64,000 nt of DNA, taken from Ostreococcus lucimarinus (Eukaryota). The stretch lies in the NCBI GenBank assembly GCA_000092065.1, contig CP000581.1; one strand, written 5' to 3'. Shown here in pieces: positions 20,846-49,966 of the stretch. The notes under the pieces are model-generated. The model ran no database searches. It was not told the DNA's origin and saw only the letters and a program-made list of their open reading frames with translations. Position 1 is the first letter of the stretch. Every line of letters begins with the position of its first letter. Position numbers and translations under genes: made by a program.

Positions 20846-22144
20846 CTAGTCTCTGCCGTACGCGTTGATCCAATCCACGAGGCCCATGCTTGACGTCTCC
20901 ACTCGAGCGTCCGATCCCGAGCCCGCGATGGCGCCGATCTCGGCCGCGCCAAAAGTGGCGATTCCAGTGAAGACACCGGGAGGCGAGACTCGCATACGAC
21001 GTGATGAAGCAACGCCAACGCCAGTGAGTACGGCGTCGTGTTCGTATACGTCTAGAAAGGCAAAGCTCGTCTCGCCCTCCGCCGCCTCGAGCATCGCCTC
21101 AAGCGTCACGTAATGAACATCATTTCGATAATGATAGTGTCCGGGATGGTCGTGTCCTGCCAAACAAATCTTCACGCACCCACTGCTTTCTATGAGATCG
21201 GAGACCTCGTCGCTGTTCCAGGCGCTCATCTGATACCGAGCCGCGTCTCTGTGCAAGGCGTTGTGCGACGCGACGATGACTCGCTCGCGTTTCGCCGCCG
21301 CGTCGTTCAGCTCGTCCCGCAACCAGTCAAATTGAACGGGACCGATGCCTCCGCCCCAAGGAACGACATCCTCACGACCCTCGTCCACGGCGTCTTGCGC
21401 GAATCGCATCGCCGCATCGAACTCTGGCGCGTCTCGAGATACGTACCGCGGATTCAAATCCGTCGTGTCCAAAACGATTAATCGCCACCCTCTCGGCATA
21501 CTCGCGCTGTAATACGCCGCCTCGGCGTTCACGGCGCTTAAAAACACCTCTTTCCCGACGTTACAATCGTGATTCCCCACGCAGTGGAACATCCGCACCT
21601 TCGACGCGTTCACCAAATCCGCGACGACCGCCAAGTCTGTTCCGTTCTTTTCCGTCGTCGACGCGCGCATCGGCGTCCGCAGCACCGGCTTCGTCGTCTT
21701 ATCGTCCTCGTTGTACCCATCAAACAAATCACCCAAGTTCACGATTCCGCTCAGCGTCGCCGCTTCGTCTTCGAACGCGCGAATGCACTCTCGCAGTCGT
21801 CGCTCGCTCGCCCTGAACCGCTTCGTCCGCGTCGCGTCGTCCTCCCGCGTCTCGTCCACCTTATCGCCGTACTGCGCGTCCGCGAACACGCCCAGTCGAA
21901 AGCACCGCGTCTTCTCCACGCTCTTCAGCCGCGCGCTCGAGCCGACCGCGTTCACGCGCGGCGCCCGCGTCGTCCTCGCGTCGTCGTCGTCGTCGTCGTC
22001 GCCATCCTTCGTCCTCGCGCGCGCCCTCGTCGTCGCCGCGCCCGCGCGCGAACGCGCCGCACCGTTCGACCGCGTCGGCGGCGCTCGAAGCGCGCCGGCG
22101 CGCGTCGCCGTCGACATCGCGTCGCGCTCTGGCGCGCGCGCCAT
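20846..22144 (-). CDS. Calcineurin-like metallophosphoesterase (ADP-ribose/CDP-alcohol diphosphatase, ADPRM-like)
   Basis: FRLGVFADAQYGD, GDLFDG, HCVGNHD and ..ASHNALHR..AGHDHPGHYH metallophosphoesterase motifs. ATG verified at 22142-22144. Confidence 0.6.
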   Translation of the reverse strand: MARAPERDAMSTATRAGALRAPPTRSNGAARSRAGAATTRARARTKDGDDDDDDDARTTRAPRVNAVGSSARLKSVEKTRCFRLGVFADAQYGDKVDETREDDATRTKRFRASERRLRECIRAFEDEAATLSGIVNLGDLFDGYNEDDKTTKPVLRTPMRASTTEKNGTDLAVVADLVNASKVRMFHCVGNHDCNVGKEVFLSAVNAEAAYYSASMPRGWRLIVLDTTDLNPRYVSRDAPEFDAAMRFAQDAVDEGREDVVPWGGGIGPVQFDWLRDELNDAAAKRERVIVASHNALHRDAARYQMSAWNSDEVSDLIESSGCVKICLAGHDHPGHYHYRNDVHYVTLEAMLEAAEGETSFAFLDVYEHDAVLTGVGVASSRRMRVSPPGVFTGIATFGAAEIGAIAGSGSDARVETSSMGLVDWINAYGRD

Positions 22145-22202
22145 CGTGATTTCGAGTCGACCTCACTCGTCGTCGCGTCGCGCCGCGCGCGCGGGCGGCG
22201 TC

Positions 22203-25200
22203 ATGTTCGGCGGCGACGGCGCGGACGGTGCGAATCCGTTCGGCGCGCCGCGCGCGCGCGCGTTCGGGACGAGCGCGCGCGACGCGAGCGCGAGTCCGTT
22301 CGGCGCGAGCGACCCGTTCGGGCGCGGCGACGCGAGCGCGACGACGGCGACGACGGCGCCGGGAGGGGCGCCGGGCGCGGGCGGAGGGACGGCGACGCCG
22401 TTCGGGGGGTTCGGGGGGGGCGCGCCGGCGGCGAACGCGCCGGGGGGGGTCGGAGGCGCGAGCGGCGGGTTCGGCGGGTTCGGCGCGAGCGCGAGCGCGA
22501 GTCCGTTCGGGAGCGGGACGGGCGCGGCGGCGCACGGAGCGAGCGGTGGGGGTGGGTCGGCGTTTGGAGGCGGTGCGAACGCGTTCGGGGGTGGAGGGGC
22601 GTTCGGCGCGAGCGCGCCCGCGGCGAGCGCGAGTCCGTTCGGCGCGCCCGCGAGTCCGTTCGGGACGGGCGCGCCCGCGGCGAGCGCGAGTCCTTTCGGC
22701 GCGAGCGCGAGTCCTTTCGGCGCGAGCGCGAGTCCTTTCGGCGCGAGCGCGAGTCCTTTCGGCGCGAGCGCGAGTCCTTTCGGCGCGAGCGCGCCGCAAA
22801 CGGCGCCGTCGACGCCGTTTGCGCCCGTCGCGAGCTCGCCGTTCGGCGGCGGCCCATCGTCGACGACCGCGCTGGTGTTCGGCGCGTTCGGGGCGGCGTC
22901 GCCGAGCTCGACGCCGTCGCCTTTCGCGGTGAAGGTACCAGAACCATCGGCGGCGGCGTCGCCGTTCGGTGGCGGTGGGTTCAGCTTTAGCGCGTCTCCG
23001 ACGACTGCGCCCGCGAGTCCTTTCGGCGCGAGTCCTTTCGGCGCGGCGCCAGCGGTATCTTCGGCTCCGACCGGCGGGATCTTCGGCGTAGCGCCCACGA
23101 CAGGGGGGTTGAGCGCCACGGCATCGCCTTTTGCGCCTAAACCGGCCACATCTGGTTTCGCGTTCGGCGGCGCGAATCCACCAGAGGCGGAGAAACGAGA
23201 CGCCATCGCAAGTATTCCTGCGTTTGGTGGCGGCGCGAAAGCTTTCGTCCCGCCGAAGCCAAAACCCATTGCGGATAGATTAAACTTAGCTAGTGAAGCG
23301 CCATCGACGTCAAATGCTGCGGGCGATGAGACGGGCGAAATCACCACCTCGAGTGGTCACATCGTGGGTACGTGCGATTTGATGTGCCCGGCGAAGGAGA
23401 GAGAATTCAGGAGCGCGAACGGCGACTTGGAAGTGTTCGAGAGAGTCGACCCAGAGGATCGCATGAAGTCTCATCCAGATTTGTGCATTAAAAAATATAC
23501 GCGCATCGTTGATGAAATTACGCCTGACATGGTTCGAACGAAGAAAGGTTTACAGTTGGCGATAGATCAACTTTGGCGAATTCTCGACGCCGAGGACAAA
23601 GACTTCATGACAAAGAGCAAATTTCTTTGGGACAGGCTGCGATCTATTCGCCAGGATTTGAATTTACAGCAAATCACGGATTCGTTCGCGGTAAAGCTAT
23701 TAGAGCAAATGGTTCGTTACACCATCCTAGCCGAACACGAGCTGTGCGAGGCGACAGCGTCGGCGACGAACCCGGACGGGCACAATTCTCACTTGAATGT
23801 TGAGCAGCTGACGAAGACACTCACGTCTCTTCGACACATGTACGACGATCATGCCGATCGTGGTCAGCAACTCGGTATTGATGCCGAGGCCGAGATGTTC
23901 TGTTATCAGCTCTTGCTTCGCATCGACTCGCACGGACGCTACGCCGTGCAACGGTCGGAGATGTTGAACGATTTAAGGAGCGTCCGCGCTGAGGTGCTAA
24001 AGCATCGTGACGTTCAATTCGCGCTCCAGTGTCATCGTGCATATCACGAAAACAACGTCGCCCGATTCTTTCATCTTGTGAAAAAAGCGACGTACGTTCA
24101 AGCTTGCTGTCTGCACAAGTTCTTCAATAGCATGCGTGGTAAAGCGCTCGAGGTCATGAACACGACGTACGGCAAGTTCATCATGCCGATTACCGAAATC
24201 GCGCGTCTTCTGCATACGGATGATATGGAGACGGAGGCGTTGTGTATACATCACGGATTAAACGTCACCAGAGGTAAAGCCGGGGATAAACCACCTGCGG
24301 TGACTATGCGCGAATCGTCGTACATTTCTCCCGCGGAAGAGTTTCCAATCTCGCGCTCAGATTTAATCATGAACAAGCGAGCCGCTTCTTACTTGCTTGA
24401 GATCGTCGGTAAGGACGAATCGGTTAGGATTGCTGCCAAAACGCTCCCAACTATGAGTACACCCAAAACTACGCCACAATTGTCCGAAGCGGATAAACGC
24501 AAGCAGCAGGCTGATGAACTCCGAGCAAAGATTGCGTTGCGCGAATCGCAGCTCGAAAAGGAACGAGCCGCCATTCTCGCCAAGAAGAAGGAGATCGAAG
24601 AACGCAAGGCTGCGGAAAAGAAGGCTGCGGAAGAAGCTGAGCGAAAGGCTAAGGAAGCAGAGGAGGCGGCAAGGCGAGCGGAAGAAGAAGCGAAGGCTGC
24701 CGAGGCGAAGGCGAGAGCTGAGGCTGAAGCTGCGGAAGCCGAGCGAAGACGTCTCGCAGAAGAAGCCGCTCGAGCCAAAGCCGAAGCTGAGGCGAAGGCG
24801 CTCGCTGAGGCTGAGCGACGAAAAGCAGAAGAGGAAGCGGAACGTCAACGAGTACTTGCCGAGGAACGAGCTCGAGAGACAGCTGCCGCCGCACACCGGG
24901 CTGCAATCGCAAAAGCCGAAGCCGAAGCTCGCGCGCGCCGCGCTGCCGAGGCTGAGGCTGAGCGACTCCGTCTTATCGCTGAAGAGAACGCTCGACGTCA
25001 AGCGGCTGAGGCAAAAGCAGCGCGAAAGCGAGCGAAAAGGCACATGGCGATCCGCCGACTCACATTTTCTCTTTGGCGTATGAACTCGAAGGAGTTCAAG
25101 CGAGAGCGGTTGATCGGCGAAGCGCTCGCCATGGCAAGTCCTGCGCCGGCGCTGAATCTCGGCGGCAAGGCTCTCCTCGACGCGAGTGCGGCATCTGAGC

Positions 25201-26873
25201 GTCCGACGGACGCGCTTGCGCAACTTCGAAAGAAGATTGAATCTGTCCGCTCGCCAGAATTCGGCGTGCCTTTGGATGTTCCGCAAACCGTTGGATTGGC
25301 GCTGCACGAAGCTGCGGCCACCGCGGCGCCGAGCGCTCTTGTTTGGAAGTGTCTCATCTGCACTGGCGCGGAGGCAGACTCCGGAGCGAGCGCGTCATCA
25401 CGACCGAGGACGACTACAGCGACAATCGTCGCGGAGTGGCTGCGCACGAAACTTTCTCGGGGCGGAAGCGCACACGCGACAGAGCCTGGCACTGGGACGA
25501 TTTTGTCGCTCTACGGCGCCCGACTTCCACTTCCAGGAACTGATGAGGAAAATGATTACATGATGGGTCCTTTGGCCTGGATCGTCGTCAGAGACGTGCC
25601 AGCAATGATGGAAAATTCCAAAGGTTCCAACGCGGGCGCGTCATCGGCGATTTTCGTTCTCGATTGCGGTGGCGGCACGTGTGAGAGTCACGAGCTGAAG
25701 CGTCTTCGAGCGTTCAGCTCAGCGGTGAAGAGGAGTGAAGCGCCGCTTGTAATCTTCGTCGCATCGAGAGACAACACGAATCAGAACGATATCAAGAAAA
25801 GTATCACAAGTTCCGGCATCGAGGGCGCGTTGGTGATATTTCTTCCTCCGAAAGGTCCGGAAGAATGGTCCGACGACAAGTTGTCCGAAGTGCTGGTTTG
25901 GACGGCGGAACGCGCGCCAAAGGCGCCTCGACGCAGGATCGCATATCTTTCGGCAGAAATTGAAGAAGCGTTACGACCAGGCTATGTCAACTTGACGGTC
26001 AAGCCACGTGTGTCTCCGCGAGCGTGCATACGCGCGTTCAACGATGCCCTCGACCAGCTGGAGCATAAAATACTCGAAGCCGCGCAAACTGAGGACGGCG
26101 CTGAATGGCCGCCGGTTGAGATCGGTCTCGTCAACGCGGCGCTTCCGCCGCCTGGCTGGAGATCCAAGTCCCGTCGAACGAAAGTGTTAGATTTGTTGCA
26201 TTCCGTGCGCCTGCCAGATTTCGAGGCTGGAGAGAAGCCCGTGCGCGCTTTCATCGATTACGTCGCAGCGGTGTTACCGCACTACCCGAAAGACTACGGC
26301 CAATGCTTGCTCGCGCAAGCGCGATACGACCCGCATTTCCACAAGCTGCAAGACATTCCGTGGGTGACGCTGTTCCAAACTCTCATCACACTTCTGCTGA
26401 GCGGATTAGAGAGCCAAAGCCGCGACGCGTGCATCTACCTTCCTCCGGGTCATCCCTCGTACGACTTCACGCCGTACGAGCCCGAGCCGGAATTGCTCGC
26501 CGAACGCGCGTCTTCGAAGACGCCGACCGAAGCCTTTGACGACGCCACGAACCGCAAGCGCAAGCACGAGGCGCTCGCCACCGCCATCCCCGAAGCCAGT
26601 CGGTTCGAAGAGATCGACTCCGCACCCTTGGACAACGTTCGCGCCGTCTTGGACGATTTACGTCGCGACGTCGACGCGCACGCGCGCTTCGCCGACGCCT
26701 CCGAGCGTTGGCTCGCCGCGCTCGCGACCAACACCCCCGGCACCGCCGAAGACCCCGAATCGTTCGCCGACGCCGGCGAATCGGACGCGCATCTGACCGC
26801 GTTCAACGCGTCCGTCGCCGCCGAGCGCGCCGCCGAGGCGCGTCTCCGGCTTCTCCTCGACGCCGCGCCGTAG
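22203..26873 (+). CDS. SAC3: SAC3/GANP-family protein (TREX-2 mRNA export scaffold) with N-terminal FG repeats and a long E/A/K-rich charged helix
   Basis: SAC3/GANP domain: GTCDLMCPAKEREFR......FE..D......P.LC.KKY.R.......P...R....L....D.LW.I. The N-terminus carries about 40 FG/SPFGAS repeats. Residues roughly 930-1110 are (AEAKA/EERKA)n. The start is the first ATG downstream of the divergent neighbour (22203); the ORF-tool start at 21711 overlaps that gene. Confidence 0.75.
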   Translation: MFGGDGADGANPFGAPRARAFGTSARDASASPFGASDPFGRGDASATTATTAPGGAPGAGGGTATPFGGFGGGAPAANAPGGVGGASGGFGGFGASASASPFGSGTGAAAHGASGGGGSAFGGGANAFGGGGAFGASAPAASASPFGAPASPFGTGAPAASASPFGASASPFGASASPFGASASPFGASASPFGASAPQTAPSTPFAPVASSPFGGGPSSTTALVFGAFGAASPSSTPSPFAVKVPEPSAAASPFGGGGFSFSASPTTAPASPFGASPFGAAPAVSSAPTGGIFGVAPTTGGLSATASPFAPKPATSGFAFGGANPPEAEKRDAIASIPAFGGGAKAFVPPKPKPIADRLNLASEAPSTSNAAGDETGEITTSSGHIVGTCDLMCPAKEREFRSANGDLEVFERVDPEDRMKSHPDLCIKKYTRIVDEITPDMVRTKKGLQLAIDQLWRILDAEDKDFMTKSKFLWDRLRSIRQDLNLQQITDSFAVKLLEQMVRYTILAEHELCEATASATNPDGHNSHLNVEQLTKTLTSLRHMYDDHADRGQQLGIDAEAEMFCYQLLLRIDSHGRYAVQRSEMLNDLRSVRAEVLKHRDVQFALQCHRAYHENNVARFFHLVKKATYVQACCLHKFFNSMRGKALEVMNTTYGKFIMPITEIARLLHTDDMETEALCIHHGLNVTRGKAGDKPPAVTMRESSYISPAEEFPISRSDLIMNKRAASYLLEIVGKDESVRIAAKTLPTMSTPKTTPQLSEADKRKQQADELRAKIALRESQLEKERAAILAKKKEIEERKAAEKKAAEEAERKAKEAEEAARRAEEEAKAAEAKARAEAEAAEAERRRLAEEAARAKAEAEAKALAEAERRKAEEEAERQRVLAEERARETAAAAHRAAIAKAEAEARARRAAEAEAERLRLIAEENARRQAAEAKAARKRAKRHMAIRRLTFSLWRMNSKEFKRERLIGEALAMASPAPALNLGGKALLDASAASERPTDALAQLRKKIESVRSPEFGVPLDVPQTVGLALHEAAATAAPSALVWKCLICTGAEADSGASASSRPRTTTATIVAEWLRTKLSRGGSAHATEPGTGTILSLYGARLPLPGTDEENDYMMGPLAWIVVRDVPAMMENSKGSNAGASSAIFVLDCGGGTCESHELKRLRAFSSAVKRSEAPLVIFVASRDNTNQNDIKKSITSSGIEGALVIFLPPKGPEEWSDDKLSEVLVWTAERAPKAPRRRIAYLSAEIEEALRPGYVNLTVKPRVSPRACIRAFNDALDQLEHKILEAAQTEDGAEWPPVEIGLVNAALPPPGWRSKSRRTKVLDLLHSVRLPDFEAGEKPVRAFIDYVAAVLPHYPKDYGQCLLAQARYDPHFHKLQDIPWVTLFQTLITLLLSGLESQSRDACIYLPPGHPSYDFTPYEPEPELLAERASSKTPTEAFDDATNRKRKHEALATAIPEASRFEEIDSAPLDNVRAVLDDLRRDVDAHARFADASERWLAALATNTPGTAEDPESFADAGESDAHLTAFNASVAAERAAEARLRLLLDAAP
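22615..22800 (+). repeat. 21-bp tandem repeat (gcgagcgcgagtcctttcggc, about 6 copies) encoding (SASPFGA)n within the SAC3 FG domain
   Basis: Direct reading at 22680-22800 shows five perfect consecutive copies plus diverged flanking copies. Confidence 0.85.
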
Positions 26874-27047
26874 CCACGCCTCGTCGCGCGAGACGAATGT
26901 CGAATGCATCACAATCGCGCGCGCCGCGCCGCGCCGCGCCACCGCACGCGCCGCGCCCGGCGCGACCGCACCGGTGATCGAAATCGCCCGCGCCCGCGCC
27001 CGTCGCCCGCGCGCGACGCCGCGCCCGCGCGCGCGCGTCGTCGACGC

Positions 27048-42282: not shown

Positions 42283-42521
42283 ACATCGACATCGTACACT
42301 AATCGCCTCTGAAGTAAGTACTAGGAACTTATACGTTGTAGTTGGCTCATCGTTACACAAATCTATGAACGACTTTCCCTTGAAAGTTTCTCCGCGCCGC
42401 GCGTTCGCCTCTCAGCGCGCGGCGTCCACGCCCGCACACCCAGACCGCGCGCGCGAACGCACCGCTCTCGGTCGTCGACGGCGACGATCGGTGCGCGAGC
42501 GTCCTCAGACGTCTCGCGCGC

Positions 42522-45086
42522 ATGTCGCGCGACGACGCGCGTCGACGGCGCCACCGCGCGTCGTCGCGCGTCGTCTCGACAACGGTCTACTCAAAGGCCG
42601 CGGCATGTTTCATCGTCGCGCTCTTCGCCGTCATCGCGCGCGCGCAGCGACTGCCGACGTACGTGCAGCCGCCGTACTTGCAAAGCATATCGCCGGACAC
42701 GGGGCACGTCGTGGGAGGAACGACGGTGACGATATACGGGGGGGGATTCCAGAATCACGCGGGACTGGCGGCGCGGTTCGCGTATTACGACTCAAACACC
42801 GGGACGGCGGAGGTTGACGTGGTTCGGGCGACGTACGTCGATTACGGCACCATACGAGTGGTGACACCGCCGAGAAAATTTGCGGCGAGCGTGCACGTGA
42901 CGGTGACGAATAACGGGATTGGATACAGCACGACGCCGTTGAATACGGATGACGCGGGGACGTACGCGTTGTTTGAGTACAAATCCAACGCGCCCGCGGG
43001 AAGTTGGACGGTGAAAAACGCCACAGGGCACGCGTTCGGCGGGGCGGTGGTGGAGATTACGAATCCGTCGCACACGACGAGCACGAGATCGACGGATAAT
43101 AATTTTCTCCCCGGGGTGCACCTGCGATGTAGGTTTGGAAATCCATCAGACGCGTCGGCGACGACAAATTTGACGATCGGCACGGCGACGAAGACGGCGG
43201 AACATCCATGGTTCGGGCGTGGTGGTAATATCGGGTACACAGTGACGTCGAACCGCTTGAATGGTGGTTCCGCGATGGAAGGTCCGTCGTTTATTTTACG
43301 ACGAGGAACGACGTACACGTTTACGGTGAGTTCGACTGGACATCCATTTTATTTATCTTCTGTAGAGCCATCCATGTGGGAAAAAAGCAACACGCCAACG
43401 GCCACGCTCACGACGGCGACAGATAGCGGTTCGGTGACCTTCGCGCCGGATTCTAACACGCCAGATTATGTGTTTTATCACAGCACTAGCGGAGCGTTCA
43501 TGGGCGGTATGATCACCGTCGTAGATTCAGGCGCGGCAGATTTCGAGACTGGTGCTGCCAACGCGAATACGGTACGCGCGGAATGGGTTTCATACAACAA
43601 AATCCGCTGTATCGCCCCAACGTCGGTGAGCGCGCTGGACGACAACGCGGATCATGGCGGAAATCAAGTGACAATCTTTGTCTCAAACGACGGCGTATCG
43701 TACCACAGCGGGCAGGGCGGCGCCGACTCGGCAACACCCACTGATGCAGGTACTGGGTCCACGTTCACCTACTTCGGCAACACGGCGTTTACAGACGTTC
43801 CTCTGTATTTTCTTGGGTCTGGCGCTTCGTACAGCGGAGGTGTCGCTCTTGAGTTAACGTCGTCCAAGCACGCCGTGAGCACAATTTACGCTCAAGACGG
43901 CACGAAGGACGGCACTGCGGCGACGGCGTATGCAAGCGCGAAAACATCGCATGCGACGGAAGCGTCACTCGTAGTAGGTTCTGGTAACGCGGACGACCTC
44001 GTGGTAGAGGGAACTTTTACAGGAAACGGAATCGCGTGGTTCGAAATCGTCATCGACGACGCAACAAGTGGCGCTGAAACATTTAGATGGCGACTGCACG
44101 CGGGCGTCGGTTCGAACGTAGCCTGGGTCGAAACCGCCCGAGCAATTCCTGTCGGTGTTTTCGGGGGCACCATATCCCCATCGGGGTTATTGAGTGACGG
44201 AATAAGCATTCGTTTCACGTCTTCCGGAGGCCATCATTTGCTCGGCGACCGCTGGATCGTAAGAGTATACGGTGGCAATCCCAACGTTATTTCCGCACGA
44301 ACAACGCACGAAGAAACGACGTACGCGGCGAGAGGGCCATTCTTTGGAAACACGGAAATCACCATCATCGGTGAATCCTTCTTTCCATCGAATGGTATGT
44401 GGTGCAAGCTATACGATAGCGACACCACCGTCACGCATACCGTGCCGGCGTATTTCGACAACATGAAACGAGTGCGATGCATAACGGAAAAGCATGAGCC
44501 TCGCTCGGGTGGTGAAGTTCCAGGGACTTTTCGACCTTGCTTCTACAAGAATATTCAACTGAGTTTGGATGATAAGTCGACGTTCAGCGTGGTGAAGTCA
44601 GACGTGAAGTTTCTCTACTGCGACATTTACGTTTCAAAATCTGGTTCAGACGCGTACGGTGATGGTACGCCAAACGCGCCGTACCTCACGCTGCAGCGCT
44701 CGATTGAAGCTGCTCTCGGCGAAGCACGGTCGTATGACATTCGTTATAACCTAGACGACCCCGACACGGGCATTCGGCTTCCTTCAGAACATCGCAACGT
44801 CAAGTTTGGCACGGCTTCAAAGATTCCCGTCAATAAAGGCTTTGGTTACTTTGTCAACCGCGACAAGGTGCGCGTCAAGACTGGAACGTACGCTGGAGCG
44901 GGGAACGTAGGATTACACCCTCTCGGTAAGATGCTCGAGGCGGAGGCGAAAGATGGAGCCGTCACTATCGATTGTGGGGCTGAGGGGTACACGGGAATGC
45001 TCGTCAACGGCGATCGTCATGGTACAGAAGAAGTCACGAATTCCGGGAGCGTGTCGTTCTTTGGAATCACTCACGTTAATTGTTAA
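42522..45086 (+). CDS. Secreted/cell-surface protein with multiple IPT/TIG-like beta-sandwich domains
   Basis: N-terminal signal-anchor (AACFIVALFAVIARA). At least three IPT/TIG-like segments are present (PYLQSISPDTGHVVGGTTVTIYGGGF...RVVTPP; ...IRCIAPTS; GPFFGNTEITIIGESFF...RVRCITE). Thr/Gly/Ser-rich throughout. ATG verified at 42522. Confidence 0.5.
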   Translation: MSRDDARRRRHRASSRVVSTTVYSKAAACFIVALFAVIARAQRLPTYVQPPYLQSISPDTGHVVGGTTVTIYGGGFQNHAGLAARFAYYDSNTGTAEVDVVRATYVDYGTIRVVTPPRKFAASVHVTVTNNGIGYSTTPLNTDDAGTYALFEYKSNAPAGSWTVKNATGHAFGGAVVEITNPSHTTSTRSTDNNFLPGVHLRCRFGNPSDASATTNLTIGTATKTAEHPWFGRGGNIGYTVTSNRLNGGSAMEGPSFILRRGTTYTFTVSSTGHPFYLSSVEPSMWEKSNTPTATLTTATDSGSVTFAPDSNTPDYVFYHSTSGAFMGGMITVVDSGAADFETGAANANTVRAEWVSYNKIRCIAPTSVSALDDNADHGGNQVTIFVSNDGVSYHSGQGGADSATPTDAGTGSTFTYFGNTAFTDVPLYFLGSGASYSGGVALELTSSKHAVSTIYAQDGTKDGTAATAYASAKTSHATEASLVVGSGNADDLVVEGTFTGNGIAWFEIVIDDATSGAETFRWRLHAGVGSNVAWVETARAIPVGVFGGTISPSGLLSDGISIRFTSSGGHHLLGDRWIVRVYGGNPNVISARTTHEETTYAARGPFFGNTEITIIGESFFPSNGMWCKLYDSDTTVTHTVPAYFDNMKRVRCITEKHEPRSGGEVPGTFRPCFYKNIQLSLDDKSTFSVVKSDVKFLYCDIYVSKSGSDAYGDGTPNAPYLTLQRSIEAALGEARSYDIRYNLDDPDTGIRLPSEHRNVKFGTASKIPVNKGFGYFVNRDKVRVKTGTYAGAGNVGLHPLGKMLEAEAKDGAVTIDCGAEGYTGMLVNGDRHGTEEVTNSGSVSFFGITHVNC

Positions 45087-46790: not shown

Positions 46791-46963
46791 GTCTCGTCTC
46801 TCGTATACAAACACTCCAGATCGCCGTCGCGCGTCGACGCGAGGCGCGTCGACGCGCGTGATAAATTAAGTAAATCACACGCGCGCGGCGCCGACGCGTG
46901 CGATTTTCGCCGCGCGCGAGAAATCGCGACGCGCGCGTCGGCACGTCGCGACGCGCGGTCGCG

Positions 46964-49900
46964 ATGGCGTTCGGTGGATTCGGTGGGTTCGGCGCGGCGC
47001 AGCAGCCGCCGTCGCCGTTCGGCGCGGCGCAGCAGCCGCACAGCGGCGCGTTCGGCGCGACGGGGGCTCGACCGGCGACGACGGGCGCGTTCGGCGGTGG
47101 ATTCGGGGGGCAGGGCGCGGCGAGCGGGGGGTTCGGGAGCGCGATCGGCGGCGCTGGGAGCGGCGCGCCGGGCGCGGCGCGGGCGGTGGCGGACGCGTGC
47201 AAGTTTTGGAACCGCGGGAGCTGTAAATTCGGGGCGCGGTGTAACAATAAGCACTGCTGTTCAAAGTGCGGATCGACGGCGCATCGCGCGGTGAGCTGCT
47301 CGATGACGCCGGGGGTGAGCGGATATCGAGCGACGCGGGTGATGGATAAGGAGCTGTTGACGCCGGGGACGTCGTACGCGATGGTGCACTCGATCAGCGC
47401 GATGCCGGAGAATTTGGGGAAGAGCGCGGAGGAGATTCGGGCGGCGGCGTACGCGAGCGCGGATCAGCCGGCGACGAGCGCGGGTGGGTTCGGGGCGCCG
47501 GCGGCGACGAGTCCGTTCGGGGGGACGACGGGGGGAGGAAGCGCGTTCGGGGGGGCGAGCGGGGGAGCGTTCGGAGCGAGCGCGACGCCGGCGAGTCCGT
47601 TTGGGGCGCCGAGCGGGGGTGCCTTCGGAGCGTCGACGTCGACGCCGGGCGGTTTCGGGGCGTCAGCCGCGCCGAGCGCTTTCGGCGCACCGTCGGGAGG
47701 CGGAGCGTTCGGATCATCGCCCACGGGTGGGTTCGGGGCGCCCGCGGCGGCGCCGAGCCCGTTTGGCGGCGCCGCGACGCCGTCCGCTTTCGGAGCGCCC
47801 GCGAGTTCGGCGCCGAGCGGCGGTTTGTTCGGGTCCACGACAGGCGGTTTCGGCGCTTCTCCGGCGTCTTCCGCGTTCGGGGCGCCGTCGACCACGAGCG
47901 CGTTCGGGGCGAGCGCGCCGACGCCGGGTGCTTTCGGCGCCACGCCGTCGGCGAGTCCGTTTGGGGCGGCGCCTTCGACGCCGGGCGCGTTTGGGGCGCC
48001 GGCTTCGACGCCCGCTTTCGGCGCATCGGGCGCGTTTGGCGCCGCACCGACGCCGAGTGCGTTCGGAGCGCCGTCGTCTACGCCCGCGTTCGGTGCAGCG
48101 CCCGCGTCTAGCCCTTTCGGCGCCGCGCCCGCGGCGGCGAGTCCGTTCGGCGCGGCGCCGTCGACGCCGGCATTCGGTGCGGCGCCGACACCGGGCGCGT
48201 TCGGCGCGGCGCCATCATCCGGTGGCGGACTGTTCGGCGCGGCGCCTTCGACGGGTGGTGGTTTGTTCGGTGCGTCTGCGCCTTCCACTCCAGGCGCGTT
48301 CGGCGCGAGCACGCCCGCGCCCGGAGGATTTGGCGCTCCAAAGCCCGCGGGCGGGCTGTTCGGCGCTGCGCCGTCGACGCCAGCGACTGGGGGGCTGTTT
48401 GGTGCTAGTACAGGTGCAACCACTCCTGGCTTCGCCGGTTCAACGCCAGGGTTCGGCGCAGCACCGTCCACGGGTGGTTTGTTTGGCGCCTCGGCTCCGG
48501 CAACCGGAGGCGGCGGTTTGTTTGGCGCCGCGCCGTCTGCGGCGGCGACGCCTGCGTTCGGTGGATTTGGCGCGTCTGCGGCGACACCCGCGTTTGGTGC
48601 ATCTTCTGCGGCGTCCGGTGGTTTGTTCGGTGCATCCGCGCCGACTTCTGCGCCAAGCGGTGGACTGTTTGGCGCCGCGCCGACGTCTTCGCCCGGCGGC
48701 GGTTTGTTCGGCGCTTCGGCACCGGCGACCGGCGGTGCCTTCGGTGGCGGACTTTTCGGTGCCGCGAAGCCCGCGAGCGGTGGACTTTTCGGCGCCGCCC
48801 CGACGACCGGAGCTGCTCCTGGTGGCGGACTGTTTGGTGCGTCGGCTCCGACGTCGGCGCCGAGCGGCGGTTTGTTTGGCGCGGCTCCGACGGCGGGTGG
48901 TGGATTGTTTGGCGCTTCCGCACCCGCCGCTGGAGGTAGCATTTTCGGCGCAGGGGGGCTTGGAGCCTCGCAGCCGGCGATGGGTGCGCTCGTACCTTTC
49001 GGCGCTCAGCCTGCCGTTGCGTCCACTCCGTACGGGTCACCACTTCAGCCTCCGCAGCTCGCGCTGGCGACGACGGACCAAGCCCAAGCGAAGAGATCTT
49101 TGCTCGGTAAGATGCAAAGCCCAGCCGCTGGTGCCGCGGCGACGGCATTCCCAGTGCGTTCGCTGACGCCACGCTCTCCTTGGCTCACGAGCCGCGGTGG
49201 GTTAAGCCGCGAACCGAAGCCGCGTGGCGGCGCGTCTTTGCCGTCTCCTGGAGGCGCGGCACAAGCCATCGGAACACCCACTTCGGCTGCTCGCCCTGGG
49301 AGCGCGGTGTCCGTGGCCACGCCATCGAGTGGTGGGTGGTTGTTCAAGCCACGCGAGAATCCTCGCGCGCTCTTCATTCGCCCAGAGGGTGTTTCTGCTT
49401 CGCCAGCGCCGTCAGTCGCGCTCGCGGTTTCGCCGACGCGCGCAGATCAAAGCCCGGAACGTCGTCAAGTCCATTTCGCAGAGGACAAAGAAAACACTCC
49501 GGGTAAAGGCGCACCGGTTAGTCACAATATCATCATGCCGAAGCTCACTTCTGAAGGCTACAGCATGAACCCGACGCTTGAACAAATGGAAAGAATGTTT
49601 GAGCGCAGCGGCGACGACGCCCTCGCGGCGGTGGACAACTTTTCTGTGTCGAACGAAGCTTTCGGTCGCGTAAAGTGGCTCGAGCCCGTCGATGTTCGTG
49701 GCTTGGATCTCGATAAAATCGTGTCTTTCGAGCAGGCGTGCTTGTGCCTGTACCCCGAAGATCAAGGTATCGAGCCGCCGGAAGAGGGTGAAGGTTTGAA
49801 GAAGCGCGCCGAGGTAACGCTGTACGGAATCTTGCCGAAGAAGTCTGGCACCGCCGCCAAGGAAAAGTATCGCGAGAAGATTGTGAAACAAACCGAAAAA

Positions 49901-49966
49901 GCGGGCGCCGAACTCGTAGAATACAACCCAGATACAGGGATTTGGAAATTCATCCTGCAACTTTGA
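46964..49966 (+). CDS. NUP98: Nucleoporin NUP98-like: GLFG/FG-repeat domain, embedded CCCH+CCHC zinc fingers, C-terminal autoproteolytic (Nucleoporin2) domain
   Basis: More than 60 FG/GLFG repeats. The C-terminus (..KRAEVTLYGILPKKSG....KQTEKAGAELVEYNPDTGIWKFIL) aligns with the NUP98 autoproteolytic domain. At 47198-47299 sits C-x7-C-x5-C-x3-H followed by C-x2-C-x4-H-x4-C. Start is the ATG at 46964 (MAFGGFGGFG). Confidence 0.8.
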   Translation: MAFGGFGGFGAAQQPPSPFGAAQQPHSGAFGATGARPATTGAFGGGFGGQGAASGGFGSAIGGAGSGAPGAARAVADACKFWNRGSCKFGARCNNKHCCSKCGSTAHRAVSCSMTPGVSGYRATRVMDKELLTPGTSYAMVHSISAMPENLGKSAEEIRAAAYASADQPATSAGGFGAPAATSPFGGTTGGGSAFGGASGGAFGASATPASPFGAPSGGAFGASTSTPGGFGASAAPSAFGAPSGGGAFGSSPTGGFGAPAAAPSPFGGAATPSAFGAPASSAPSGGLFGSTTGGFGASPASSAFGAPSTTSAFGASAPTPGAFGATPSASPFGAAPSTPGAFGAPASTPAFGASGAFGAAPTPSAFGAPSSTPAFGAAPASSPFGAAPAAASPFGAAPSTPAFGAAPTPGAFGAAPSSGGGLFGAAPSTGGGLFGASAPSTPGAFGASTPAPGGFGAPKPAGGLFGAAPSTPATGGLFGASTGATTPGFAGSTPGFGAAPSTGGLFGASAPATGGGGLFGAAPSAAATPAFGGFGASAATPAFGASSAASGGLFGASAPTSAPSGGLFGAAPTSSPGGGLFGASAPATGGAFGGGLFGAAKPASGGLFGAAPTTGAAPGGGLFGASAPTSAPSGGLFGAAPTAGGGLFGASAPAAGGSIFGAGGLGASQPAMGALVPFGAQPAVASTPYGSPLQPPQLALATTDQAQAKRSLLGKMQSPAAGAAATAFPVRSLTPRSPWLTSRGGLSREPKPRGGASLPSPGGAAQAIGTPTSAARPGSAVSVATPSSGGWLFKPRENPRALFIRPEGVSASPAPSVALAVSPTRADQSPERRQVHFAEDKENTPGKGAPVSHNIIMPKLTSEGYSMNPTLEQMERMFERSGDDALAAVDNFSVSNEAFGRVKWLEPVDVRGLDLDKIVSFEQACLCLYPEDQGIEPPEEGEGLKKRAEVTLYGILPKKSGTAAKEKYREKIVKQTEKAGAELVEYNPDTGIWKFILQL

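Follow-up and report, generated by a model that had tools for sequence, protein, structure and literature searches.

An SAC3B-type TREX-2 scaffold of Ostreococcus lucimarinus with an FG-rich head and a predicted charged single-alpha-helix linker

We analysed a 64,000-nucleotide stretch of the Ostreococcus lucimarinus genome (assembly GCA_000092065.1, contig CP000581.1), referred to at its full length as the window. Positions 22203-26873 of its plus strand hold an open reading frame (ORF) of 1556 codons and a stop codon without interruption. The translation agrees residue for residue (1556 amino acids, aa) with the O. lucimarinus CCE9901 protein XP_001415553.1 / ABO93845.1 / UniProt A4RRE0, which is named 'predicted protein' at NCBI and 'SAC3/GANP/THP3 conserved domain-containing protein' in UniRef. 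As judged by homology, the product is a SAC3B-type orthologue, a SAC3/GANP-type scaffold of TREX-2, because distant homologues of its aa 1000-1556 carry the SAC3_GANP domain and include proteins named SAC3 family protein B. The features along the gene, including a head rich in phenylalanine-glycine (FG) motifs and a long charged linker, are as follows.

22203..26873 (+): complete single-exon coding sequence of the O. lucimarinus SAC3B/GANP-type protein (ORF translation identical to XP_001415553.1 / A4RRE0).
22203..23237 (+): N-terminal FG domain, aa 1-345, with 29 FG motifs (13 SPFG), rich in Ala, Gly, Ser and Pro, nearly uncharged and presumably disordered (motif counts, alignment).
22680..22793 (+): exactly periodic 21-bp array of 5 full units and a further 9 bp, coding for (ASASPFG)n (Tandem Repeats Finder, TRF; unit search).
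23016..23045 (+): two extra copies of the SPFG unit in its CCT form, AGTCCTTTCGGC, some 240 bp farther downstream than the array (TRF 23012-23045, period 15, 100% matches).
23382..24269 (+): SAC3_GANP (PCI-type) domain, aa 394-689 (Pfam PF03399), the M-region, where THP1/PCID2 and SEM1/DSS1 bind in those homologues that have been characterised.
24486..25037 (+): E/A/R/K-rich, single-alpha-helix-like spacer, aa 762-945 (composition, charge pairs, AlphaFold2, alignment).
25038..25136 (+): helix end with a putative centrin-binding (CID-type) motif, HMAIRRLTFSLWRMNSKEFKRERLI, in which L953, F955 and W958 are invariant (pattern match, alignment).
25320..25922 (+): C-terminal alpha/beta domain, aa 1040-1240, with a predicted G-domain-like (Arf/Sar/Rab-like) fold and no P-loop.
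25947..26432 (+): helical domain that packs after the preceding G-like domain, aa 1249-1410 (similar in sequence to land-plant 'SAC3 family protein B').
26433..26870 (+): tail, aa 1411-1556, with a low-confidence segment, RKRK (aa 1451-1454) and two conserved helices (alignment, AlphaFold2).

The original prediction, made from the DNA letters alone, had taken this protein for a SAC3/GANP scaffold of TREX-2, and domain searches bear this out. Pfam PF03399 (SAC3_GANP) matched aa 394-689 (E = 5.2e-77) over nearly the whole profile (positions 1-288 of 289), and among relatives of the domain in the PDB human GANP (8r7j) scored best at 1.2e-36, with yeast Sac3 at about 1e-14. No Pfam family besides SAC3_GANP exceeded its curated cut-off on the O. 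lucimarinus protein. Word-indexed searches with the algal SAC3 domain or the SAC3 region of human GANP returned only fragments of 590 residues or fewer. The FG-rich N-terminus had been placed in the same ORF as the SAC3 domain, and this also held: the two share one ORF in 6/6 Ostreococcus species sequences and in Bathycoccus prasinos, the N-terminal MFGG start is shared in the alignment by O. tauri and other Ostreococcus-clade sequences, and aa 346-385, the junction between the two regions, are conserved coding sequence. Nothing in the genomic sequences compared pointed to separate transcripts for the two.

Conservation was compared module by module among the six Ostreococcus species. Identity to O. 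lucimarinus was 84-90% in the SAC3 domain (0% gapped columns), 66-70% in the globular C-terminal domain (1% gapped columns) and 41-46% in the FG head (58% gapped columns). The charged helix was 77-81% identical, above the globular C-terminal domain, with 184/184 alignment columns gap-free, although its low-complexity composition inflates this identity figure.

Of the 30 FG motifs in the whole protein, all but the one at aa 1020 fall within aa 1-345, which gives the head 29. The number first put forward, about 40, is therefore too high; even the phenylalanines of the head number only 35. Gly follows Phe in 29/35 cases there, at a Gly frequency of 0.217 (binomial P = 2e-14). Thirteen of the motifs are SPFG, the median FG spacing is 10 residues, and 17/345 residues are charged. 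Many FG columns are invariant among the six species, and the spacers between them carry indels. The FG region has a GC content of 76%, and its GC content at third codon positions (GC3) is 80%. By segment, GC3 was 0.80 for FG, 0.61 for SAC3, 0.48 for the helix (24486-25037) and 0.63 for the C-terminal part. The opposite strand and the other frames across the FG repeats also hold open ORFs of up to 394 aa, arising from composition and repeats; we rejected the antisense ORFs over 22163-23347(-) as genes and regard them as a by-product of the GC-rich repeats.

Within the head, the 21-bp unit GCGAGCGCGAGTCCTTTCGGC is repeated head to tail with starts at 22680, 22701, 22722, 22743 and 22764. A perfect 21-bp repeat had been announced for 22680-22800; the five perfect units are indeed present, and the exactly periodic run ends at 22793, giving 114 bp. 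TRF extends the array imperfectly over 22623-22793 (8.4 copies, 85% matches), the upstream copies being imperfect and older. The unit variant with CCT for Pro is confined to the five array copies and to two others, at 23016/23031, and nine other PFG motifs of the FG region use CCG. Because the nucleotide repeats are perfect and the CCT variant is limited to these places, with CCG in the older copies, the sequence supports a recent amplification of the array, as the original prediction had held.

The array was also compared with O. lucimarinus-like metagenome contigs (L001-L006; five from a left-flank scan and L001 from an earlier protein match), which are 98.7-99.8% identical to the window. 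Where the reference has 5 units, these have 2, 3 or 4; of the two contigs with 3, one breaks off within the array, so that its count is a minimum. The differences are whole 21-bp units, and the flanks are identical. Copy-number polymorphism is plausible, but the 51, 72 and 93 bp found for the array equal the shortest de Bruijn path for a longer array at k of about 31-52, 52-73 and 73-94, ranges that take in the commonly used values of about 33, 55 and 77. Because of this coincidence we do not take polymorphism as proven: assembly collapse could give the same lengths.

Another reading is that the FG array, together with the charged stretch farther along the protein, serves no selected function and is neutral low-complexity filler that slippage and a GC-rich composition have generated. 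The high GC and GC3 of the FG region, its many interspecies indels, its slippage-prone perfect repeat and the assembled copy numbers of 2 to 5 are all compatible with this. It is nevertheless very improbable, since the coupling of Phe to Gly goes beyond composition and many FG columns are invariant across species, and the helix is free of indels in six species and keeps its length in a Bathycoccus protein with less Ala.

FG repeats had been described in the original prediction as known from metazoan GANP but not from yeast Sac3, so that their presence in an alga would be phylogenetically informative. Published work contradicts this. Degenerate FG repeats were proposed for S. cerevisiae Sac3N (Fischer et al. 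2002), and Chaetomium Sac3N has ten prominent FG motifs, which bind the NTF2-like domain of Mex67:Mtr2 and not CRM1 or Kap104 (PMC4509546); in GANP, the FG region (1-313) binds NXF1 (PMC2869303). Given the fungal Sac3N motifs, an FG region in the alga is therefore the expected state and not an informative exception. In our sample its distribution is patchy: Ostreococcus sequences have 23-32 FG motifs, Bathycoccus types 12-21 with the SPFG flavour seen in Ostreococcus, and an oomycete 22, with one further lineage also represented. Some of the metagenome-derived gene models are possibly truncated at the N-terminus.

The FG head might alternatively be a functional FG-nucleoporin of the basket, contributing to the permeability barrier or docking karyopherins in general rather than recruiting a specific mRNA-export receptor. 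Twenty-nine FG motifs in uncharged, cohesive-type sequence would suit such a role, residues 1-340 of GANP are 23-32% identical to FG nucleoporins (PMC2869303), and reviews report that Mex67 is not found in plants, with no Mex67/NXF1 known there (PMC8421043, PMC8421220). However, the head matched neither Nucleoporin_FG nor any other nucleoporin family of Pfam at E <= 0.1, whereas the NUP98 of the same window has a Nucleoporin_FG match at 5e-25. The selectivity of the Chaetomium motifs for Mex67:Mtr2 (PMC4509546) also argues against general docking, and Micromonas-like and land-plant relatives are without the FG head, and hence the head is no fixed component of the pore. We regard a nucleoporin role as unlikely and favour a head that recruits a specific receptor.

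Downstream of the SAC3 domain, the linker from the M-region to the CID is strongly biased in composition. At least 80% of residues are E/A/K/R/Q in 30-residue windows across aa 778-950 (nt about 24534-25052), which agrees with the location first given for an E/A/K-rich stretch (24540-25080); the composition is Arg-rich as well. Over aa 760-950 we found 34% Ala, 23% Glu, 16% Arg and 11% Lys, with 51% of residues charged and no Gly or Pro, and the Gly/Pro-free run in O. lucimarinus is 213 residues long. Opposite-charge pairs at i to i+4 number 45, as against 24.2 +/- 3.9 in shuffles (z = 5.3), and like-charge pairs at i+3/i+4 are depleted (z = -3.7). Hydrophobic residues (L/I/V/M/F) make up 9% and show no 3.5- or 7-residue signal and no preferred heptad register. 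TRF detected no tandem repeat in the helix-coding DNA. AlphaFold2, run on aa 740-1556 as a monomer with 19 homologues, returned one continuous 217-residue helix, aa 762-978, with confidence (pLDDT, predicted local distance difference test) of about 80 towards either end and about 50 midway.

Because opposite charges are enriched at i to i+4, like charges are depleted and hydrophobic periodicity is absent, the stretch looks like a single alpha-helix and not a heptad coiled coil; both forms had been envisaged at the outset, and only the first agrees with the pattern. The AEAKA/EERKA heptads first read in this stretch are accordingly not supported. That the stretch is an oligomerising element of TREX-2, either a coiled coil of two or three chains or an Ala-zipper, in place of a monomeric spacer appears quite unlikely for the same reasons, the charge-pair pattern being a single-alpha-helix signature. 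In favour of such an element, the stretch is long, helical and free of Gly and Pro, its 34% Ala might allow 'alacoil' packing, Chaetomium TREX-2 assembles into higher-order annular particles when reconstituted (PMC4509546), and a monomer run of AlphaFold2 cannot show oligomers.

The single-alpha-helix reading can be set against Bathycoccus. Gly/Pro-free helix lengths are 224-228 residues in Bathycoccus-type proteins and 211-222 in Ostreococcus, whereas Ala falls to 12-13% from about 31% in Ostreococcus and E, K and R are higher. The Bathycoccus orthologue (E 27%, K 14%, R 21%, A 13%) is closer to the classical ER/K type. Since length is kept in Bathycoccus while the sequence differs, the constraint would therefore be on a physical property, and this suggests that the helix is a length-constrained spacer. 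At 0.15 nm per residue it would span about 28-32 nm.

Comparison systems are provided by the ER/K single alpha-helix (SAH) domains and by the designed A(EAAAK)nA rigid linkers. Like SAH domains, the algal helix is Gly/Pro-free, enriched in opposite charges at i to i+4, without a hydrophobic seam and predicted as one long helix. Unlike classical ER/K helices of the myosin type, it combines 51% charged residues with 34% Ala and is nearer to the EAAAK/EAAAR type. Its length of about 185-215 residues is long for an SAH.

Two parts of the protein lie beyond what the original prediction covered, namely a centrin-binding motif and a C-terminal region of about 500 residues. The motif, HMAIRRLTFSLWRMNSKEFKRERLI, is located at about aa 946-972, inside the predicted helix. 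Its F955-S-L-W958-R segment fits the pattern [F/L/I]xxW[K/R/Q], which is common to the published centrin sites of AtSAC3B (1050-AKAKLKLIIRLWKRWSSRQSELRERR), yeast Sac3 (797-KFFEKWQ) and GANP (YLQRWR) (PMC8622359); the Arabidopsis SAC3B site peptide binds centrin/CML19 in vitro (PMC8622359). In a MAFFT alignment of 23 SAC3B-type proteins, with land-plant SAC3B aligned, no fewer than 90% of rows had Trp in the motif column. Counted from where the SAC3 domain ends, this Trp lies 258 residues away in O. lucimarinus and 258-268 in Ostreococcus, as compared with 263-274 in Bathycoccus-type, 234-250 in land-plant and 374-412 in Micromonas-like proteins. A phmmer search with the 80-aa CID region against PDB sequences, including solved Sac3/GANP CIDs, gave nothing at E <= 10, and because of this the putative centrin site is a motif-level assignment.

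ENY2/Sus1-like proteins wrap the Sac3 CID helix in yeast and human; in the alga, the E/A/R/K helix occupies the position upstream of the centrin site where Sus1/ENY2-binding segments would be expected. The helix could be mainly a protein-binding platform, for instance for an ENY2/Sus1-like partner, with its conservation arising from partner contacts and not from a constraint on length. In yeast, two Sus1 and one Cdc31 coat the long helix of the CID (PMC8622359), the algal helix is more conserved than the globular C-terminal domain, and the AlphaFold2 confidence rises to about 80 at both of its ends. Against this, the passage of PMC8421043 that cites Pfab 2018 gives ENY2 as not being a subunit of Arabidopsis TREX-2; two Sus1 sites need only about 60 residues, as opposed to 185; and in Bathycoccus length and charge pattern persist while the sequence differs (Ala 12-13% vs 31%), which fits a physical-property constraint better. 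A platform is on balance improbable, and a length-constrained spacer is the reading we prefer.

For the C-terminal region, a HMMER scan of aa 1000-1556 against 1.8 billion representatives retrieved only 19 proteins at E <= 1e-3; phmmer matches named 'SAC3 family protein B' came from Cryptomeria (3.3e-6) and Impatiens (5.6e-4). In Pfam searches at E <= 10 with the C-terminal region and with five full-length homologues, nothing credible matched beyond the SAC3 domain, and SAC3_GANP alone passed its curated cut-off. By these homologies, the G-like and helical domains (aa 1040-1410) are a SAC3B-type C-terminal module held in common with land-plant SAC3B. Compared with the Ras/Arf superfamily, aa 1040-1240 have a predicted G-domain fold at a sequence identity of 8-14%, and they contain no GK[ST] and no NKxD, the P-loop GxxxxGK[S/T] being absent. 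The loop after strand 1 instead reads WKCLICTGAEADSG (family consensus WKLLxCSG), and a DxxG-like LDCGGG was found in Ostreococcus only. In the tail, the basic RKRK patch is invariant and resembles a nuclear localisation signal (NLS), and the helices span aa ~1478-1508 and 1520-1553.

The gene is closely flanked on both sides. On one side, 58 bp separate the SAC3 ATG from that of a divergent metallophosphoesterase gene, at 22144(-); on the other, the ATG of a G-patch gene lies at 26904, 30 bp past the SAC3 stop codon; with spacers of 58 bp and 30 bp, promoter and terminator signals must therefore overlap the adjoining genes. The original prediction had noted NUP98 20 kb away, and a NUP98 homologue is indeed encoded by the ORF at 46874-49963(+), which starts 20.0 kb downstream of the SAC3 stop codon and contains 60 FG and 15 GLFG motifs, the Nup98 S59 autopeptidase domain (4e-25) and Nucleoporin_FG (5e-25). 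The S59 domain covers residues 894-1027 of 1030, and the ORF stops 3 residues later; therefore no fused Nup96 part follows in this frame. We rejected a functional meaning of this proximity, as NUP98 is a separate gene with several genes in between, and neighbours here stand tens of bases apart. Another frame in the window, 42384-45083(+), is open for 900 codons, encodes an IPT/TIG domain (Pfam 2.9e-15) and 9 FG dipeptides, and is unrelated to the SAC3 gene.

Set beside known systems, the algal protein follows the textbook GANP/Sac3 layout of FG region, PCI domain, CID and large C-terminal domain (PMC12216326). It is like land-plant SAC3B (Arabidopsis At3g06290 family) in its SAC3_GANP domain, in a centrin motif that aligns column for column, in the SAC3-to-Trp distance given above and in the C-terminal domain. 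It differs in that Impatiens has 1 FG and Cryptomeria 7 scattered FG, 1 of them before the SAC3 domain, and neither has an N-terminal FG cluster; nor is their M-to-CID linker an E/R/K helix, the longest Gly/Pro-free run being 48-55 residues as against 213 in the alga. Human GANP (the MCM3AP gene product) is like the algal protein in overall module order (PMC12216326) and is the best solved-structure match of its SAC3 domain, but its FG cluster has only six motifs compared with 29. Fungal Sac3 resembles it in an FG-type N-region, a PCI M-region and a Trp-centred centrin site on a long CID helix. In yeast, by contrast, the FG motifs are few and degenerate, and the M-to-CID linker (residues 551-723) is reported to be flexible with the CID randomly oriented (PMC4991852), whereas the algal linker is a predicted charged rod. 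Sequence comparison revealed no SAC3B-type C-terminal domain in fungal Sac3.

Together, these observations suggest a working model for the whole protein, from the FG head to the C-terminal module, to which we assign a probability of roughly 0.7. The disordered FG head (aa 1-345), with its 29 mostly SPFG motifs, would offer a multivalent docking surface to an FG-binding transport receptor, which in fungi and animals is the NTF2-like domain of Mex67/NXF1 (PMC4509546, PMC2869303). At the SAC3/PCI domain (aa 386-700), binding of THP1/PCID2 and SEM1/DSS1 would create the M module, which handles RNA and helicase. An uninterrupted helix of about 215 residues (aa 762-978) would follow, the first ~185 of which are a candidate self-stabilised E/A/R/K single alpha-helix serving as a semi-rigid spacer of about 28-32 nm. 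Its end would carry the centrin-binding motif, which in characterised homologues is part of the pore-anchoring CID module. The degenerate GTPase-like fold and the helical domain, apparently specific to SAC3B, and then the basic NLS-like patch would complete the protein. The perfect 21-bp units suggest that the FG array is still growing or shrinking through replication slippage or unequal exchange. The domain identities, helix properties, motif alignment and conservation pattern were observed directly. All binding partners, the pore location and the spacer role we infer by analogy with characterised homologues.

Several observations weigh against this model. Micromonas-like Mamiellophyceae have short N-termini with 0-1 FG, and land-plant SAC3B is essentially without the FG head (1 FG in Impatiens) and without the E/R/K helix; thus neither module is required for SAC3B function generally. 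As plants appear to have no Mex67, the FG head may lack its canonical partner. With only 51% charged residues and 34% Ala, the helix departs from the classical ER/K type, the AlphaFold2 confidence in its middle is only about 50, and its identity figure is inflated, as noted above. The null search with the CID region against solved structures belongs here as well.

A more far-reaching proposal is that in Ostreococcus and Bathycoccus a self-stabilised charged single alpha-helix replaced a flexible or ENY2/Sus1-coated linker, that its length of ~30 nm is selected as a molecular ruler fixing the reach of the M module and its 29-motif FG head from the basket, and that the FG head binds a green-lineage mRNA export receptor. 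We consider this doubtful at present.

The gene is an expected housekeeping orthologue, already present in RefSeq and UniProt, and an ordinary member of a known scaffold family; the understanding of TREX-2 is unchanged by these findings. The P-loop-less GTPase-like fold predicted for the SAC3B C-terminal domain is a small annotation gain. A charged-rod linker between the M-region and the CID did not appear in published descriptions covered by a narrow literature search. With its length, but not its composition, kept between Ostreococcus and Bathycoccus, the indel-free charged linker appears to offer a clean natural case of a length-constrained TREX-2 spacer, in contrast to the yeast linker, which is reported to be flexible. 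The large FG head on a green-lineage SAC3B, with no Mex67/NXF1-type receptor so far found in plants, provides a concrete bait for its binder. If the ruler and receptor proposal were true, this small-genome alga would offer a route to the green-lineage mRNA export receptor.

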